Notes under the pieces: model-generated
Seen by the model: only the letters and a program-made list of their open reading frames with translations
Told to the model about the DNA's origin: nothing
Databases searched by the model: none
Assembly (NCBI GenBank): GCA_045544735.1
Contig: JAZPZM010000077.1
Coordinates: 971 to 64,970 of the forward strand
Source: Eubacteriales bacterium
GTDB lineage: Bacteria; Bacillota; Clostridia; Oscillospirales; CAG-272
Reading direction: 5' to 3'
Length of the DNA stretch: 64,000 bases
Position numbers and translations under genes: made by a program
In this document: one piece after another, positions 1 to 8,499 of the stretch
How positions within the stretch are numbered: the first letter of the stretch is position 1
How the letters are laid out: every line of letters begins with the position of its first letter

Positions 1-729
1 TCAATTATATTGCAACTTCACCGCGACCTATATAAATTCAGCGGGAAGTCCATCGGAGGATCTTATAAGGAAACCGATAACGTAATCGCAGAGGAAGACG
101 AGGAAGGGAACAAGCGCGTTCGTTTTGTTCCCGTATCGGCTTGGGAAACCCCAACAGCTATAGATGGCATATGCAAAGCCTTTGATGAAACGCTATCTGA
201 TAGCGACGCCGATCCGCTTCTTATAATTCCAATGTTTATATTGGATTTTCTATGCATTCACCCGTTTAACGATGGTAACGGAAGAATGAGCCGATTGCTC
301 ACCTTGCTGCTCCTATACCGAGCAGGCTATATTGTGGGTAAATATATCAGTATCGAAAAGCTGATAGAGCAAACAAAAGAAACCTATTACGAGGCATTAC
401 AAAACAGTTCCGCCTGTTGGCACGAGGATAAAAACGATTATATTCCCTTCGTGCAGTATACGCTTGGTATCGTTGCCGCGGCATATCGCGAGTTTTCGGC
501 GAGCGTAAGGCTGACGGCGGCGAGCAATATGTCCAAGCCCGAACGCATCAGAGCAATTATACAAGAAACACTTGGTAAAATAACAAAATCAGAAATTATG
601 GAAAAATGCCCCGATATCAGCCAAGTCACGGTACAACGAGCACTTAATGAGCTGGTAATAAGCGGAGAAATTTTAAAAATTGGCGGCGGTCGTTATACCG
701 CATACACGTGGAATCGCGAAAAGGAGTAA
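1..729 (+). CDS. Fic/DOC family protein, 5' end cut by window edge
   Basis: The frame is open from base 1. Fic motif HPFNDGNGRMSR (HxFx[D/E]GNGRxxR) is present. The C-terminal tail looks like a winged helix (KSEIMEKCPDISQVTVQRALNELV). Stop is at 727-729, only 3 nt before the hsdM ATG. Confidence 0.85.
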   Translation, partial: SIILQLHRDLYKFSGKSIGGSYKETDNVIAEEDEEGNKRVRFVPVSAWETPTAIDGICKAFDETLSDSDADPLLIIPMFILDFLCIHPFNDGNGRMSRLLTLLLLYRAGYIVGKYISIEKLIEQTKETYYEALQNSSACWHEDKNDYIPFVQYTLGIVAAAYREFSASVRLTAASNMSKPERIRAIIQETLGKITKSEIMEKCPDISQVTVQRALNELVISGEILKIGGGRYTAYTWNREKE

Positions 730-732
730 AAT

Positions 733-2229
733 ATGATTACAGGCGAACTTAAAAATAGAATTGACGGACTTTGGGATGTATTTGCCGCAGGCGGACTTGT
801 AAACCCTCTCGACGTAATTGAGCAGGTTACATACTTGATGTTCATCCGCGACCTTGACGATACCGATAATCTTCGCGCAAAGGAAGCCGTAATGCTCGGG
901 CTTCCCCATAAAAGCATTTTTGCCGACAAGGTAAAGGTGGGAGAGCGAGAGATCGACGGAAATCAGCTCAAATGGTCGGTATTCCACGACTTTCCTGCGG
1001 GAAAGATGTATTCTACCGTTCAGGAGTGGGTGTTCCCGTTTATCAAGAACCTGCACAATAATAAGGATAGCGCATACTCCAAGTATATGGATGATGCCAT
1101 CTTCAAAATCCCCACCCCCTTGCTTCTCGATAAAATCGTTACCATTCTTGACGATATCTACTCGCAAATGGCGCAGATCAAGGACAGCGACATTCGCGGC
1201 GACGTATACGAATACTTACTTTCCAAGATCTCGCAGTCGGGGCTTAACGGTCAGTTCCGCACCCCTCGTCACATCATTCGTATGATGGTAGAGTTAATGG
1301 ATCCCAAAGCAGACGAAATAATCTGCGATCCCGCGTGCGGCACGTCGGGATTTCTCGTCGCGGCGGGGGATTATCTCAAGGAAAAGCGCAAGGAAGAGAT
1401 TTTCTTCAATAAACAGAAAAAAGCGCACTATATGAACGGAATGTTCCACGGCTACGATATGGACAGAACGATGCTCCGCATCGGCGCGATGAACATGATG
1501 ACGCACGGCGTGGGCAACCCTTATATAGAGTATCGTGATAGCTTGTCCGATCAGAATCCCGATAAGGAGAAATACTCGCTTATCCTTGCAAATCCCCCCT
1601 TCAAGGGCAGTCTTGACTACGATACCGTTTCCGCAGATCTTCTCAAGGTCTGCAAGACGAAAAAGACCGAGCTTTTGTTCCTCGCGTTGATGCTCCGAAT
1701 GCTTCGCGTAGGCGGCAGATGTGCAGTCATCGTTCCCGATGGCGTACTGTTCGGGTCTTCTACCGCGCATAAGGCTATCCGCAAAGCGATAGTCGATGAT
1801 AATCGCCTTGAAGCCGTAATTTCTATGCCCTCTGGCGTGTTTAAGCCCTACGCGGGTGTTTCTACAGGAATCCTTATCTTCACAAAGACGGGATACGGCG
1901 GCACGGATAAGGTGTGGTTTTACGATATGCAAGCAGACGGCTTCAGCCTTGACGATAAGCGCACCGAGGTCAAGGAAAACGACATTCGTGATATCATCGA
2001 GCGTTTCCACAATCTTGACGGTGAAGCCGACCGCGCACGCACAGAAAAATCCTTCTTTGTACCCAAGGACGAGATCGTGCAGAACGACTACGACCTCTCA
2101 ATAAATAAGTACAAAAAGACCGAATACAAGCCCGTAGAGTATGCCCCTACCTCTCAGATATTGGCAGAGCTGAACGAGCTTGAGCTGGAGATCACCAAAG
2201 GACTTGCAGAACTGGAGGAGATGCTTTAA
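733..2229 (+). CDS. hsdM: Type I restriction-modification DNA methyltransferase subunit HsdM
   Basis: 498 aa. AdoMet motif DPACGTSGFL and catalytic NPPF (LILANPPFKGS). HsdM-type N-terminal region. AAGGAG at 721-726, 6 nt before the ATG. Confidence 0.93.
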   Translation: MITGELKNRIDGLWDVFAAGGLVNPLDVIEQVTYLMFIRDLDDTDNLRAKEAVMLGLPHKSIFADKVKVGEREIDGNQLKWSVFHDFPAGKMYSTVQEWVFPFIKNLHNNKDSAYSKYMDDAIFKIPTPLLLDKIVTILDDIYSQMAQIKDSDIRGDVYEYLLSKISQSGLNGQFRTPRHIIRMMVELMDPKADEIICDPACGTSGFLVAAGDYLKEKRKEEIFFNKQKKAHYMNGMFHGYDMDRTMLRIGAMNMMTHGVGNPYIEYRDSLSDQNPDKEKYSLILANPPFKGSLDYDTVSADLLKVCKTKKTELLFLALMLRMLRVGGRCAVIVPDGVLFGSSTAHKAIRKAIVDDNRLEAVISMPSGVFKPYAGVSTGILIFTKTGYGGTDKVWFYDMQADGFSLDDKRTEVKENDIRDIIERFHNLDGEADRARTEKSFFVPKDEIVQNDYDLSINKYKKTEYKPVEYAPTSQILAELNELELEITKGLAELEEML

Positions 2230-2633
2230 TGGGCAAAAAGAAAGACAAACAACGGATTATCAATAATATTCAAGAGTTAAAGCTTGAAATCGATTACGAT
2301 AAGCTTGCTGATGCAATAGTGAAAGCCGAATTGAAAGCAAAAACAGAAAAAGAGCAAACGGAGAGAAATAAAAAAGCGGGCAAACTTTTTCGTTTTTCTG
2401 CTGTAGCATATGTTTTGTTTATAATAACTTTTTTGGCGCTTTCCGTTTTATTATTAATTATCAATGATAACAATCGCGCTTTTGCGATGATCTTATTATC
2501 TGGTATTATGGGGCTGTTTCTGTATATACAATATATTATTCATATCGACGGAGGTGCAGATCGGATGCTTAATGCTATTACTCTTATAACGGCACTTGTA
2601 TCTTTGATATTTTCCGTCATGAAGGTGGCATAA
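2229..2633 (+). CDS. Small membrane protein (charged N-terminal helix plus 3 predicted TM helices), unknown function
   Basis: 134 aa. The ATG overlaps the hsdM stop (TAATG 2227-2231) and its own stop overlaps the hsdS ATG (TAATG 2631-2635). Lys/Glu-rich N-terminus, then hydrophobic segments FSAVAYVLFIITFLALSVLLLII, AFAMILLSGIMGLFLYIQYIIHI and MLNAITLITALVSLIFSVMKV. I recognise no family. Confidence 0.6.
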   Translation: MGKKKDKQRIINNIQELKLEIDYDKLADAIVKAELKAKTEKEQTERNKKAGKLFRFSAVAYVLFIITFLALSVLLLIINDNNRAFAMILLSGIMGLFLYIQYIIHIDGGADRMLNAITLITALVSLIFSVMKVA

Positions 2634-3751
2634 TGGCGAGATTGGGTGATTATGTGAAAATAAAAACAGGAAAGCTTGATGCAAATACATCAAGTGAAAC
2701 CGGACAATATCCTTTCTTTACTTGTTCTGTTGCTCCGTTGCGAATTGATACATATAGCTATGATTGTGAGTGCGTTTTGGTCGCGGGAAACGGCGATTTG
2801 AATGTTAAGTATTACAACGGAAAATTTGATGCTTATCAGCGCACTTACATCATTGAAAGCAGAGACAAAAACATTTTGACTGTTCCATATTTGTATTGCT
2901 TTCTTGATCGGTATGTGGAAGAATTGAGAAAGCAATCCATCGGTGGTGTAATCAAATATATCAAACTTGGAAATTTAACAGAAGCACAAATTCCCATATG
3001 TTCAATTGAGAAACAAAATGAGATTGTTGAAAATTTTGATAAAGTGAACACACTAATTTCTCTCCGCAAGCAGCAACTTTCAAAATTGGACGAGCTTGTC
3101 AAATCCCGATTTATCGAACTGTTTGGCGACCCTATTGATAACCCCAAGCGTCTGCCAGTAAAGCCATTGAAAGAGTTATCTACACTAATAACAAACGGAA
3201 ATACGCCAAAGGGTGGAAGCGAAAATTACGTTGAAAAAGGAATTCTATTTTTACGCAGCCAGAATGTTTGGAGAAATCGAATCGAACTTGATGATGTTGC
3301 TTACATTGACGAAGCCACACATTACAGCCTGAAAAAGAGCAGTTTGAAGTATAAAGATATTTTGATTACCAAGACAGGACGAATCAACACCGAAAACAGT
3401 AGTCTTGGCAGGGCAGCTTTGTATCTGGGCGATGATGATGCAGCAAACATCAATGGACATGTCTATCTTGTTCGCCTTGATGGTTCTGTTGTTCCAGAAT
3501 ACGTTCTTACAATTCTCATCAGTGATGCATATCGAAAGTATATCCGCAAAGTGTGTGTTGGAGGAATTGATAAGAGACAGATTAATCTTGACCAAGTAGA
3601 AGATTTCCCAATTATCCTTCCATCAATAGAACTGCAAGAGCAGTTTGCATCCTTCGTCGAACAGATTGATAAATCAAAATTGGTAATTCAAAAGAGCCTT
3701 GAAAAGCTCGAAATACTAAAAAAAGCATTGATGCAAAAATATTTTGGGTGA
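2633..3751 (+). CDS. hsdS: Type I restriction-modification specificity subunit HsdS
   Basis: 372 aa with two target-recognition halves. They are separated and followed by the conserved helical spacers (SIEKQNEIVENFDKVNTLISLRKQQLSKLDELVKSRFIELFGD and SIELQEQFASFVEQIDKSKLVIQKSLEKLEILKKALMQKYF). Confidence 0.9.
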   Translation: MARLGDYVKIKTGKLDANTSSETGQYPFFTCSVAPLRIDTYSYDCECVLVAGNGDLNVKYYNGKFDAYQRTYIIESRDKNILTVPYLYCFLDRYVEELRKQSIGGVIKYIKLGNLTEAQIPICSIEKQNEIVENFDKVNTLISLRKQQLSKLDELVKSRFIELFGDPIDNPKRLPVKPLKELSTLITNGNTPKGGSENYVEKGILFLRSQNVWRNRIELDDVAYIDEATHYSLKKSSLKYKDILITKTGRINTENSSLGRAALYLGDDDAANINGHVYLVRLDGSVVPEYVLTILISDAYRKYIRKVCVGGIDKRQINLDQVEDFPIILPSIELQEQFASFVEQIDKSKLVIQKSLEKLEILKKALMQKYFG

Positions 3752-4422
3752 AGAATGAGTTTATGAAAGAGAAGTATTACTTTAGAGGAAGTTGGCGTTC
3801 CATAAGACAGGAAACCGATGCAACAGGTAAAAAATCATTAATTTTCAAAGCGGCGCACAAAGGCGATAAGGCCGATTATGCAGACTATAATAATCTATTA
3901 GATTTGGCGTTCAATGCAAGAAAAAATGCTAATGCTCTGTTTAACTTGGTAATGGAAAAATACCAAGGTCTCAATCCGGTTGATATCGATGGATTTGAAA
4001 TGCTTGTTGCTCTTATTAATCTTTCAAGTGAACTTTATATGAAATGCCTTATTTATTATTACCAGCTGAACCAAGGAAAACAGTGTAAAGGTCTTCATAA
4101 TTTGATAGACTATTTTTTGAAATTGCCAAATGATATTCAAACAGACCTTAAAACCATAGATGATGATTTCGATTTGCAGTTAGAAAGCATTTCCAACTAT
4201 TTCAATGAGTTTAGATATAGCTTTGAATACAATGTTATTTTTGCAGAAAAATTTGCTTTTTCTTTTGCAGAGAAGTTAAATCAAATATGTAATTCTATTA
4301 AGATTAAAAGACCAGCAGAAGTTGTTTTTAGTCAACACCGGGCGGTTATTAAACATGGAGAAAAAACTATTTGGGATTCGACCAAAAAATATAATGGTCC
4401 GATAATTTCCAAAGATGACTAA
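3748..4422 (+). CDS. Hypothetical protein, possibly HEPN-like all-helical fold
   Basis: 224 aa. GTG 3748 overlaps the hsdS stop (GTGA); an alternative ATG is at 3763. The pattern KGLHNLIDYFLKL ... LESISNYFNEFRYSFEY resembles the classical HEPN signature (H-x-L...L, then R-Y). An Rx4H (RAVIKH) lies near the C-terminus. The fold call is inference only. Confidence 0.5.
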   Translation: MKNEFMKEKYYFRGSWRSIRQETDATGKKSLIFKAAHKGDKADYADYNNLLDLAFNARKNANALFNLVMEKYQGLNPVDIDGFEMLVALINLSSELYMKCLIYYYQLNQGKQCKGLHNLIDYFLKLPNDIQTDLKTIDDDFDLQLESISNYFNEFRYSFEYNVIFAEKFAFSFAEKLNQICNSIKIKRPAEVVFSQHRAVIKHGEKTIWDSTKKYNGPIISKDD

Positions 4423-7400: not shown

Positions 7401-7734
7401 GAGCGAGGTCGGAAGCAGAAAGGACTACGAAGCGGAATACGGAGAAAAACCTCTTGGCGAGTTTGTGCGAGAAATTGTGGGACTCGATATGATGGCGGCA
7501 AAAGAAGCGTTTGCGGAGTATTTGAATGACGTTAATCTTGATGCAGATCAGATTTATTTTGTCAACCAAATCGTTGAGTATATTGTACACAATGGTGTGA
7601 TGAAGGATATGTCCGTGCTTCAAGAGCCTCCGTTTACCGATAGAGGAAGTATCGTTGAAGTCTTTACCGATATTTCAGTTTGGTTGGGTATAAGGAGTGT
7701 CATCGAGAAGATCAATGCAAACGCCGCGGCATAA
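4438..7734 (+). CDS. hsdR: Type I restriction enzyme endonuclease/helicase subunit HsdR with N-terminal DUF4145 (HEPN-type) domain
   Basis: GAGG at 4428-4431 favours ATG 4438 (MTNFDFLK) over ATG 4426. Motifs seen: N-terminal CRRAMEFAVKW...FIRKLGNTAAHGG; nuclease motif GYADYVLYGDDGKPLAVLEAKR; helicase motifs MATGSGKT, VIVDEAH, LTATP and QMIGRGTR; long EcoEI-type C-terminal region. Confidence 0.93.
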   Translation: MTNFDFLKNTPDFDAFTDVAISAEKILHIDVDACVLNCRRAMEFAVKWMYSVDRDLVMPYQDNLVSLMNDEKFRDIIGADVWRRMEFIRKLGNTAAHGGKKVSLEQAELCLENLFVFLDCVAYFYAPEYTEQQFDKSLLALTVDEALSFVPENDIDIAKLIEENKALKDELTARRAEQQQTYVPKPLELSEYKTRKIYIDFMLADAGWVEGKDWVNEVELHGMPNASGVGYADYVLYGDDGKPLAVLEAKRTCMDVSKGRQQAKLYADLLEQKYGRRPIIFLSNGFDTHIWNDKYYPERKVASVYSKRDLEKLFNLHTMRASLKNVVVDKHIAGRYYQEAAIKAVCEAFDKKNRRKALLVMATGSGKTRTVIALCKALLDHGWVKNILFLADRNSLVTQAKRAFTNMLPDLSVTNLCEDKANFDSRCVFSTYQTMMGCIDTVKDENDKKLFTVGHFDLVIVDEAHRSIYNKYKDIFNYFDAPLVGLTATPKDEIDKNTYEIFELENGVPTYGYELGQAVTDGFLVDFMSVESKLKFIEEGIVYDDLSDEDKEEYENTFDDENGNHPERISSSAINEWVFNEDTIRQVLHILMQDGLRIDYGEKLGKTIIFAKNHEHAEKIHEIFGKEYPNLPGYTKVIDNYMTYAQSAIDEFSDPKKLPQIAISVDMLDTGIDVPEVLNLVFFKKVMSKAKFWQMIGRGTRRCDGLMDGKDKDKFYIFDFCGNFEFFRMNDGKPTANQVALQGAIFKLKAQIAFKLQDIAYQTTDLIAFRKSLVDDMVRKVRELNKENFAVRQHLRYVEQYSNPDNYNSLTYEDTLLIAEELAPLITPDEDEASAVRFDALMYGIELAYLAGKKYSRARTDLYKKVSGIASVANIPEIMAQSELINKILHTNYLDTAGINEFEHIRENLRNLMKYIPRTVAKYITDFDDEILSVEWNESDLENDDLKNYKAKAEFYIRQHQDEEAIAKLKSNVPLNADDIKALERIMWSEVGSRKDYEAEYGEKPLGEFVREIVGLDMMAAKEAFAEYLNDVNLDADQIYFVNQIVEYIVHNGVMKDMSVLQEPPFTDRGSIVEVFTDISVWLGIRSVIEKINANAAA

Positions 7735-7751
7735 AATGCTTGGAGGATATA

Positions 7752-8123
7752 ATGACCAAACAATCTTTCCTTGAATACTGCCTAAATACATATGGCACAT
7801 CGCCGGACTATCCGTTTGACGAGGACTTTGATACGGCGGTATTGAGGCACGCGGATAATCGCAAGTGGTATGCGATTGTGATGAAGGTCGCACGGCGCAA
7901 GTTTGGGGTTGACAGCGACGAGGTTATCGACGTTGTAAATCTAAAGCTCCCAACAGAGATGTTCGGCTCATTCGGCGCAGTCGATGGCGTCTATCCCGCG
8001 TACCACATGAACAAACGCCATTGGATATCTGTGCTTCTTCCCGACGCTCCCGACGAGGTGGTGCAGTTCCTTGTAAGCGTGAGCTTCGAGGCGACAAAAT
8101 CTTCTAAGAAAAAATCAAAATAA
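7752..8123 (+). CDS. MmcQ/YjbR family DNA-binding protein
   Basis: MTKQSFLEYCLNTYGTSPDYPFDEDFDTAVLRHADNRKWYAIVM...VYPAYHMNKRHWISV is typical of the YjbR/MmcQ family. GGAGG at 7742-7746. Starts 17 nt after the hsdR stop. Confidence 0.8.
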   Translation: MTKQSFLEYCLNTYGTSPDYPFDEDFDTAVLRHADNRKWYAIVMKVARRKFGVDSDEVIDVVNLKLPTEMFGSFGAVDGVYPAYHMNKRHWISVLLPDAPDEVVQFLVSVSFEATKSSKKKSK

Positions 8124-8461: not shown

Positions 8462-8499
8462 GAGGAATCGCAAAATCATCTGCGATTCCTCATCTTTTT
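8462..8499 (+). terminator. Rho-independent terminator
   Basis: Perfect 11-bp stem GAGGAATCGCA/TGCGATTCCTC, followed by ATCTTTTT. Confidence 0.75.

Follow-up and report, generated by a model that had tools for sequence, protein, structure and literature searches.

Between hsdM and hsdS, the methyltransferase and specificity genes of a type I restriction-modification (R-M) operon, lies an open reading frame (ORF) of 134 amino acids (aa), a genuine gene whose product is a small integral membrane protein from a family without annotation. It occupies positions 2229-2633 (+ strand) of a 64,000-nucleotide stretch of a Eubacteriales bacterium genome (contig JAZPZM010000077.1, forward strand, positions 971 to 64,970), and this whole stretch is called the window here. 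We refer to the gene as the transmembrane (TM) gene and to its product as the TM protein. The TM protein is probably an accessory anti-phage component; more specifically, and with a probability that we put at about 0.35, we suggest by analogy that it may be an R-M-linked membrane effector, that is, an accessory module acting together with the R-M complex, as is the case for Ronin and PrrC.

The TM gene is real and under purifying selection. The last A of the hsdM stop codon is also the first base of its ATG, and its own stop and the ATG of hsdS are arranged in the same way; from the stop and start positions read base by base (2227-2231 and 2631-2635), both junctions are therefore TAATG, with an overlap of 1 nucleotide (nt), and purine-rich ribosome-binding sequences lie 5' of both starts. 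A single-sequence search with the 134-aa protein returned 24 relatives and a profile search returned 1,165 clusters at 90% identity, with 1,050 representatives at 50% identity (575 below 1e-10); the sole name given to these relatives by any source is "hypothetical protein". The ratio of non-synonymous to synonymous substitution rates (dN/dS) was 0.11-0.39 in 10 of the 12 pairs with unsaturated dS, with similar values in the region after the core motif described below, and 0.61 for the most distant pair, the window against locus L025.

The family signature consists of a basic N-terminus, the 14-residue core EIDYDKLAxAIVKA and, in most members, an EKDRNY loop between the second and third TM helices (TM2 and TM3), which in the window protein is shortened to HIDGGADR. 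In an alignment of 41 unique sequences, E, I, Y, the second D, L and the final A of the core are invariant, and the first D, K and the first A deviate in one sequence only, among proteins that are otherwise 30-40% identical. Across the eight EIDYDKLA codons of the 41 unique gene sequences, non-synonymous differences were found in 0-0.05 of pairs and synonymous differences in 0.25-0.63; given that the motif residues are fixed while the synonymous sites vary freely, it is the peptide, and not a DNA or RNA element, that is under selection, and conservation of the 5' end at the DNA level, as a recombination site or an RNA element, is excluded on the same grounds. These data also bear on whether the ORF could be spurious, or a translational spacer tuning the expression of hsdS, an idea to which the overlaps at both ends lend something, since ribosomes must traverse the ORF to reach hsdS, as does the fact that the family's C-terminal K-G-V-G codons (GGGGTGGGATGATG) double as the ribosome-binding site and start of hsdS. 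Nevertheless, a spacer is barely conceivable in the face of at least 1,000 related clusters with conserved architecture, dN/dS values that stay low in the region after the motif as well, a motif fixed in the protein while its synonymous sites are free, and operons lacking the TM gene in which hsdM is coupled directly to hsdS.

Three hydrophobic segments were found by hydropathy (Kyte-Doolittle, 19-residue windows above 1.6; Table 1), and three are present in all full-length family members, whose length ranges from 134 to 219 aa. AlphaFold2 predicted one long helix from residue 23 through the first TM helix (TM1), followed by two further TM helices, in two runs with 22 and 131 aligned sequences and at modest confidence (pLDDT 67, pTM 0.33-0.34). 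The N-terminus is basic and helical, and there is no N-terminal signal peptide, given that the first ~50 residues are hydrophilic. Counted over the family, the mean number of lysines plus arginines is 4.3 before TM1, 0.7 in loop 1, 2.9 in loop 2 and 1.0 in the C-tail, which gives an N-in topology, with the motif and the loop between TM2 and TM3 both on the cytoplasmic side. The original prediction, made from the letters of this DNA without database searches, had already described the 134-aa ORF with its 1-nt overlap at each end, the three hydrophobic helices and the missing signal-peptidase site, and our analysis agrees on each count. Two of its worries, a spurious ORF and a lack of TM segments, are answered by the conservation of the gene in related hsd loci and by the three TM segments of the full-length members. 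The N-terminal ~50 residues, which it called Lys/Glu-rich and probably coiled, are basic and helical in our analysis, and the very stretch that it quoted contains a motif, not recognised there, that is invariant in the family.

In three relatives (P0129, P0146 and P0147, the last at L130:562-1062), an IDY[DE]KLxxxIV version of this motif is present as a tandem double copy before the TM region, an arrangement that suggests a modular binding peptide. In its invariance across proteins of 30-40% identity and its occasional duplication, the 14-residue motif behaves like a docking peptide. It was not found in the other operon proteins of the loci examined, being restricted within those loci to the TM family, and no published mention of it was found in our literature search.

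The TM protein has no relative among named families in the libraries searched. Pfam and NCBIfam gave nothing above threshold, and hence no mobilome domain in these scans; PADLOC-DB v2 (5027 models, including 145 PDC candidates) gave no match at E values up to 1; and the single PHROGs match (E = 0.025) was described as "membrane protein". A Foldseek search of the Protein Data Bank (PDB) with the first AlphaFold2 model returned one meaningless match (E = 8.4), and a profile search of PDB sequences found nothing below E = 0.03. Searches of viral contigs, phage records and plasmids found no relative either. A holin or phage origin was rejected for want of any meaningful PHROGs match and of viral-contig, phage or plasmid relatives, together with a Phage_holin_3_6 score of 13.4 bits against a cut-off of 28.4. 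Fic antitoxins are defined by the inhibitory-helix motif [ST]xxxE[GN]. The idea that the TM protein is the antitoxin of the upstream Fic protein was also rejected, as residues 1-52 lack that motif and the operons without a TM gene likewise carry a Fic gene 5' of hsdM (tblastn, hsdM-anchored loci).

The place of the gene was surveyed through the protein, scanning one genome per species, and this gave 38 loci with strict-motif members, all from Clostridia of animal and human guts. In 34 of the 38, the order is Fic-hsdM-[0-2 other genes]-TM gene-hsdS-[1-5 other genes]-hsdR, with HsdM 57-95% and HsdR 36-93% identical to those of the window. The TM gene is the last gene before hsdS in all hsd-embedded loci of this operon type and was never found in the hsdS-hsdR slot (0/32). 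It overlaps hsdS by 1 or 4 nt (TAATG or ATGA) in 25 of the 34 loci and, where it lies directly 3' of hsdM, it overlaps that gene by 1, 4 or 8 nt in most cases; the TM gene is thus usually translationally coupled to hsdS, and to hsdM where the two are adjacent. An independent look-up in pig-gut assemblies added four operons (L122-L125) where the TM gene, again directly 5' of hsdS, is the only embedded gene. The restriction subunit gene hsdR is present in all 30 hsd-embedded genome loci with enough downstream DNA, and it is full-length in the window. A conserved spacer of ~22 nt (AAATTCGGATTTGTGGGGATGA-like) precedes hsdS wherever the 5' gene does not overlap it, whatever that gene may be: it was seen at the hsdM-hsdS junction of L061, L062, L065, L066 and L068 and at the TM gene-hsdS junction of L036 and L092.

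The mechanism that we propose for an R-M-linked effector would run as follows. Made in step with HsdM and HsdS, the TM protein would insert N-in, and its invariant cytosolic helix would act as a latch, docking on a conserved surface of the M2S1 methyltransferase and keeping the TM protein inert. A phage anti-restriction protein, or another insult, that disturbs M2S1 would then release the TM protein, which once freed might self-associate in the membrane, so that membrane integrity collapses and the infection is aborted, with the three TM helices as the lethal part. In favour of such an effector we count the purifying selection and the N-in topology with three TM segments, the place directly 5' of hsdS in 34 of 38 loci and in L122-L125, the frequent overlap with hsdS, the carriers on deep HsdM branches, a distant member (L130) that adjoins a resolvase and a type I system of a different family, with an EcoR124-type hsdR-hsdS pair, the defence cargo of the slots, the precedents of Ronin and PrrC, and the motif itself. 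A bolder version, which we hold only tentatively and rate as doubtful, takes the family for a Gram-positive counterpart of Ronin within a fully functional type I R-M system: the portable, invariant 14-residue peptide would hold a three-TM toxin on HsdM2S1 until an attack on this complex by phage DNA mimics or other anti-restriction factors sets the toxin free.

Several observations weigh against such an effector. When related operons were collected through HsdM (80 metagenome loci with HsdM of 76-86% identity, of which 69 had a recognisable hsdS), only 2 of the 69 carried the TM gene, and therefore the R-M system works without the TM protein; the two surveys sampled different collections, so that their frequencies are not directly comparable. 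Moreover, some family members have no hsd gene in the DNA examined, that of the locus: one lies 3' of groEL (L023), one between a GH127 glycosidase gene and a pyruvate kinase gene in two samples (L127 and L128), one among unrelated genes (L126), and two in defence-like neighbourhoods, either Fic-linked (L024) or DUF2971-linked (L026). If HsdMS had to keep the toxin in check, such isolated copies would not be expected, unless an hsd operon lies elsewhere in those genomes. The restriction of the TM gene to one operon lineage could also be the outcome of cassettes being exchanged through homologous recombination, for which hsdM and hsdS provide conserved flanks. Homology to RonA, the membrane toxin of Ronin, was tried and rejected, since the RonA of E. 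coli D5 (L131:2506-2691) scored 2.3 bits against the family hidden Markov model (HMM) with filters off, and its best BLASTP E value against the window protein was 0.45. Finally, most of the characterised systems embedded in this way are independent of their host system (PMC11411939; bioRxiv 10.1101/2024.01.29.577857). As a side observation on these loci, the Fic gene of L024 lies two genes 5' of the TM gene.

The hsdM-hsdS interval was empty in about 40 of all the loci analysed, with hsdM coupled directly to hsdS, and the remaining intervals held unrelated genes, for example those of a 293-304 aa and a 142-163 aa family. Because this slot is otherwise empty or filled with other genes, the TM gene is optional slot cargo and not a subunit, and a role as a core R-M subunit is ruled out by the 67 of 69 HsdM-anchored operons that do without it. 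This is in keeping with the original prediction that a membrane protein has no part in canonical type I R-M, and it qualifies the image of a gene wedged between hsdM and hsdS: the place is right, but it is one of optional cargo and not of a fixed wedge. As for the choice offered by that prediction between a membrane-disrupting effector and an anchor for the R-M complex, the accessory-defence setting fits, both through the defence cargo of the slot and through the Ronin precedent, whereas an anchor, and an obligate dependence on R-M in general, are weakened by the members outside hsd loci. On the HsdM tree, the carriers of the TM gene form a few clades interleaved with non-carriers and are found on the deepest branches too, and this points to an old association with repeated gain or loss.

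The two slots of the operon, hsdM-hsdS and hsdS-hsdR, carry slot-specific cargo families, among them AbiH, PDC-S34 (8.7e-179), a Schlafen/AlbA_2 protein matching PDC-S50 (7e-57), a HEPN-like protein and DUF2971, and with such cargo the operon fits the "guilt by embedding" of Payne et al. (bioRxiv 10.1101/2024.01.29.577857). The TM gene itself is nested, and no mobilome domain was found in it, but some of its relatives sit among housekeeping genes. In the hsdS-hsdR slot of L036 (9702-11728), of L039 and of 12-14 metagenome loci, we also saw a tyrosine-recombinase-like gene (322-346 aa) together with extra whole or half copies of hsdS, which resemble a specificity-switching shufflon; none is present in the window.

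A cargo slot of this kind could also be occupied by an autonomous membrane defence gene that simply rides in the operon with no need of the R-M proteins, either blocking phage DNA entry as superinfection-exclusion proteins do or forming a self-contained abortive-infection (Abi) pore, in which case the role of the invariant helix would be to detect some factor of the phage or the host, or to promote self-assembly. We regard this as a real possibility, though not the one we would choose. The emptiness of the slot in about 40 operons and its unrelated occupants in others speak for it, as do the family members outside hsd loci and the precedent of TgvAB of Vibrio cholerae, which works independently of the type I system that surrounds it (PMC11411939). 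A ~197-aa cytosolic family, which we call c5 and which had no match in any library searched, adds to this: it lies directly 5' of the TM gene in six loci (L002:6963-7556, L008, L016, L025, L026:7388-7996 and L032), one of them hsd-free, and was never seen without the TM gene, which suggests that c5 and the TM gene are in some cases a self-contained two-gene module. On the other hand, a gene with no need of its hosts would hardly be expected always to be the last before hsdS and never in the hsdS-hsdR slot (0/32), or to have 34 of its 38 strict-motif members in one operon lineage; viral contigs, phages and plasmids, in which exclusion genes abound, yielded no relative, and the family matches nothing in PADLOC or PHROGs.

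The position before hsdS and the translational coupling, which suit an effector released from the R-M complex, would also suit a tether whose N-terminal helix binds the methyltransferase, or the R-M complex as a whole, and so keeps it on the cytoplasmic membrane close to where DNA enters, with no killing involved. An invariant cytosolic helix joined to a membrane anchor is what such a tether would look like, and Holubova and co-workers are reported to have described membrane association of EcoKI. We consider a tether improbable, given that 67 of the 69 related operons dispense with the gene, that stand-alone members sit in housekeeping contexts, and that three TM helices with a conserved cytosolic loop exceed the needs of a simple anchor.

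Since some relatives sit among housekeeping genes, a non-defence role also has to be weighed, namely that of a membrane protein of, for example, envelope or stress physiology that was repeatedly captured in the operon and then kept by linkage. The stand-alone copies near groEL, pyruvate kinase and transport genes are what this would predict, and for over half of the genes found inside defence systems no role has been assigned (bioRxiv 10.1101/2024.01.29.577857). It is nonetheless unlikely: against it stand the embedding at one specific position with translational coupling in 34 of 38 genomes, neighbouring cargo made up mostly of defence genes, and a patchy distribution of gain and loss on the HsdM tree.

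Table 1. Features of the operon, of the TM gene and of its junctions (positions in the window; strand in brackets).
Feature	Position	Details
Fic-family gene, 3' part	10..729 (+)	Truncated by window start; Pfam Fic 1.4e-13 and C-terminal winged helix-turn-helix; first gene of the operon type
hsdM, type I methyltransferase subunit, 498 aa	733..2229 (+)	N6_Mtase 3.2e-66; HsdM_N 3.5e-10
hsdM/TM-gene junction	2214..2231 (+)	GGAGGAG 2214-2220; hsdM stop TAA 2227-2229; ORF ATG 2229-2231; base-by-base reading
TM gene, 134-aa three-TM N-in protein, unnamed family	2229..2633 (+)	ORF listing, hydropathy, homologues, dN/dS, AlphaFold2
Core motif EIDYDKLADAIVKA	2286..2327 (+)	Residues 20-33, cytosolic; alignment of 41 unique sequences
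Hydrophobic helix 1	2388..2465 (+)	Residues ~54-79; hydropathy; AlphaFold2 helix 23-77/78
Hydrophobic helix 2	2478..2546 (+)	Residues ~84-106; hydropathy; AlphaFold2 helix 80-106/107
Hydrophobic helix 3	2565..2630 (+)	Residues ~113-134; hydropathy; AlphaFold2 helix 110-133
TM-gene/hsdS junction	2622..2635 (+)	AAGGTGG 2622-2628; ORF stop TAA 2631-2633; hsdS ATG 2633-2635; base-by-base reading
hsdS, specificity subunit, 372 aa	2633..3751 (+)	Methylase_S 3.9e-19, two stretches
Second embedded gene, 224 aa, HEPN-like, hsdS-hsdR slot	3748..4422 (+)	GTG start overlapping hsdS stop by 4 nt
hsdR, 1102 aa	4426..7734 (+)	ResIII 4e-41; EcoEI_R_C 3e-19; DUF4145 3.4e-14 (residues 27-117); HSDR_N

With regard to the neighbours of the TM gene (Table 1), 24 of the 38 genome loci have an orthologue of the Fic gene, recognised by identity (64-88%) and by clustering, directly 5' of hsdM. 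The second embedded gene of the window had no match in Pfam, NCBIfam, PADLOC or PHROGs; by phmmer, its product is distantly related to a 142-aa and a 162-aa protein from the hsdM-hsdS slot of L099 and L040 (1.8e-6 and 8.4e-5), both of which belong to a family of that first slot with one member showing a weak HEPN match. The pattern S-x-E-[LI]-[YF]-[ML]-K ... F-[NE]-x-[FW]-R-Y-x-[FY]-E is common to the three. In HsdR, DUF4145 lies N-terminal to the HSDR_N and helicase domains and EcoEI_R_C stands at the end, an architecture that was the same in all related operons looked up. A YjbR-family ORF (7680-8123, + strand; 4.9e-16) lies 3' of hsdR, whose end it overlaps by 55 nt if the listed TTG start is taken; an internal ATG at about 7752 would abolish the overlap. 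The strongest terminator-like hairpin of the region is at 8462-8491.

Genes nested in restriction operons are a rich source of new anti-phage systems, and the cases worked out so far in which an accessory gene stands guard over a type I enzyme are PrrC and Ronin. The family described here is large (at least 1,000 clusters), absent from Pfam, NCBIfam, PADLOC and PHROGs, and restricted to poorly studied gut Clostridia, and it offers a clear handle in an invariant 14-residue cytosolic motif set on a three-helix membrane domain and encoded by a gene coupled to hsdS. Docking of this motif on the methyltransferase would imply that Firmicutes-type bacteria evolved restriction guardians with membrane effectors on their own, and it would turn the motif into a peptide probe for type I complexes. 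Should the family even be a Gram-positive counterpart of Ronin, the motif would be a general "R-M docking tag", and its relatives, at least 1,000 in number, would be widespread restriction guardians of gut Clostridia. Even without such docking, the operon remains a clear example of how defence genes can be carried in two cargo slots.

Among known systems, the closest in plan is Ronin of E. coli ECOR55, made of RonA, HsdS and HsdM (Silas et al., bioRxiv 10.1101/2023.04.06.535777). There, RonA is a 61-aa membrane toxin, lethal alone, neutralised by HsdMS and triggered by Ocr, ArdA or Aop1; the system usually lacks hsdR and acts as a decoy, and ronA homologues were reported to be always hsd-linked (same source). 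In the E. coli D5 locus, taken from the supplement of that paper, the order is ronA-hsdS-hsdM, with ronA 16 nt 5' of hsdS. The likeness, therefore, is that of a small membrane-protein gene, with a basic N-terminus in its product, directly 5' of hsdS in both cases. In contrast, RonA has one hydrophobic segment in its 61 aa, whereas the TM family has three TM helices and an invariant cytosolic motif in 134-219 aa; hsdR is usually lost in Ronin and intact in the operon of the window; ronA is reported as always hsd-linked, whereas the TM gene is hsd-embedded in 34 of 38 strict-motif loci, and L023, L024, L026, L126 and L127/L128 show no hsd gene in the DNA examined; and the hosts are Enterobacteria in the one case and Clostridia in the other. 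Given that the TM family has no sequence similarity to RonA, Ronin is to be taken as an analogy and not as a system to which the TM protein belongs.

PrrC, nested in EcoprrI, is silenced by the R-M enzyme and switched on when Stp of phage T4 inhibits that enzyme (PMC12707154), and PrrC and RloC share with the TM gene the condition of an accessory gene nested in a type I hsd operon. PrrC, however, is a cytosolic ABC-ATPase and anticodon nuclease, whereas the TM protein, with its 134 aa mostly in TM helices, is embedded in the membrane, its gene sits in the hsdM-hsdS slot, and no ABC-ATPase or anticodon-nuclease domain was found in it by Pfam, NCBIfam or PADLOC. Holins and the membrane effectors of Abi systems resemble the TM protein in being small, with several TM helices and a charged cytosolic end, although the TM family stays below the Phage_holin_3_6 cut-off and has no phage relatives.

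More generally, defence genes have been described as "genetically embedded" in type I R-M, BREX, DISARM and Hma systems (Payne et al., bioRxiv 10.1101/2024.01.29.577857), and the two-slot cargo operon reported here, like the locus of TgvAB, is an instance of the same phenomenon. The TM family differs in matching none of the PADLOC v2 models, the 145 PDC candidates included, and in being slot-specific, always before hsdS, and the words "transmembrane" and "membrane" are absent from the main text of that paper. In summary, what is already known is that defence genes can be nested in type I operons and that a small membrane toxin can be tied to hsdS and hsdM. What is new is an unnamed family without any library match that joins an invariant, sometimes duplicated 14-residue cytosolic motif to three TM helices, its strict place before hsdS inside a complete R-M operon, and its host range.

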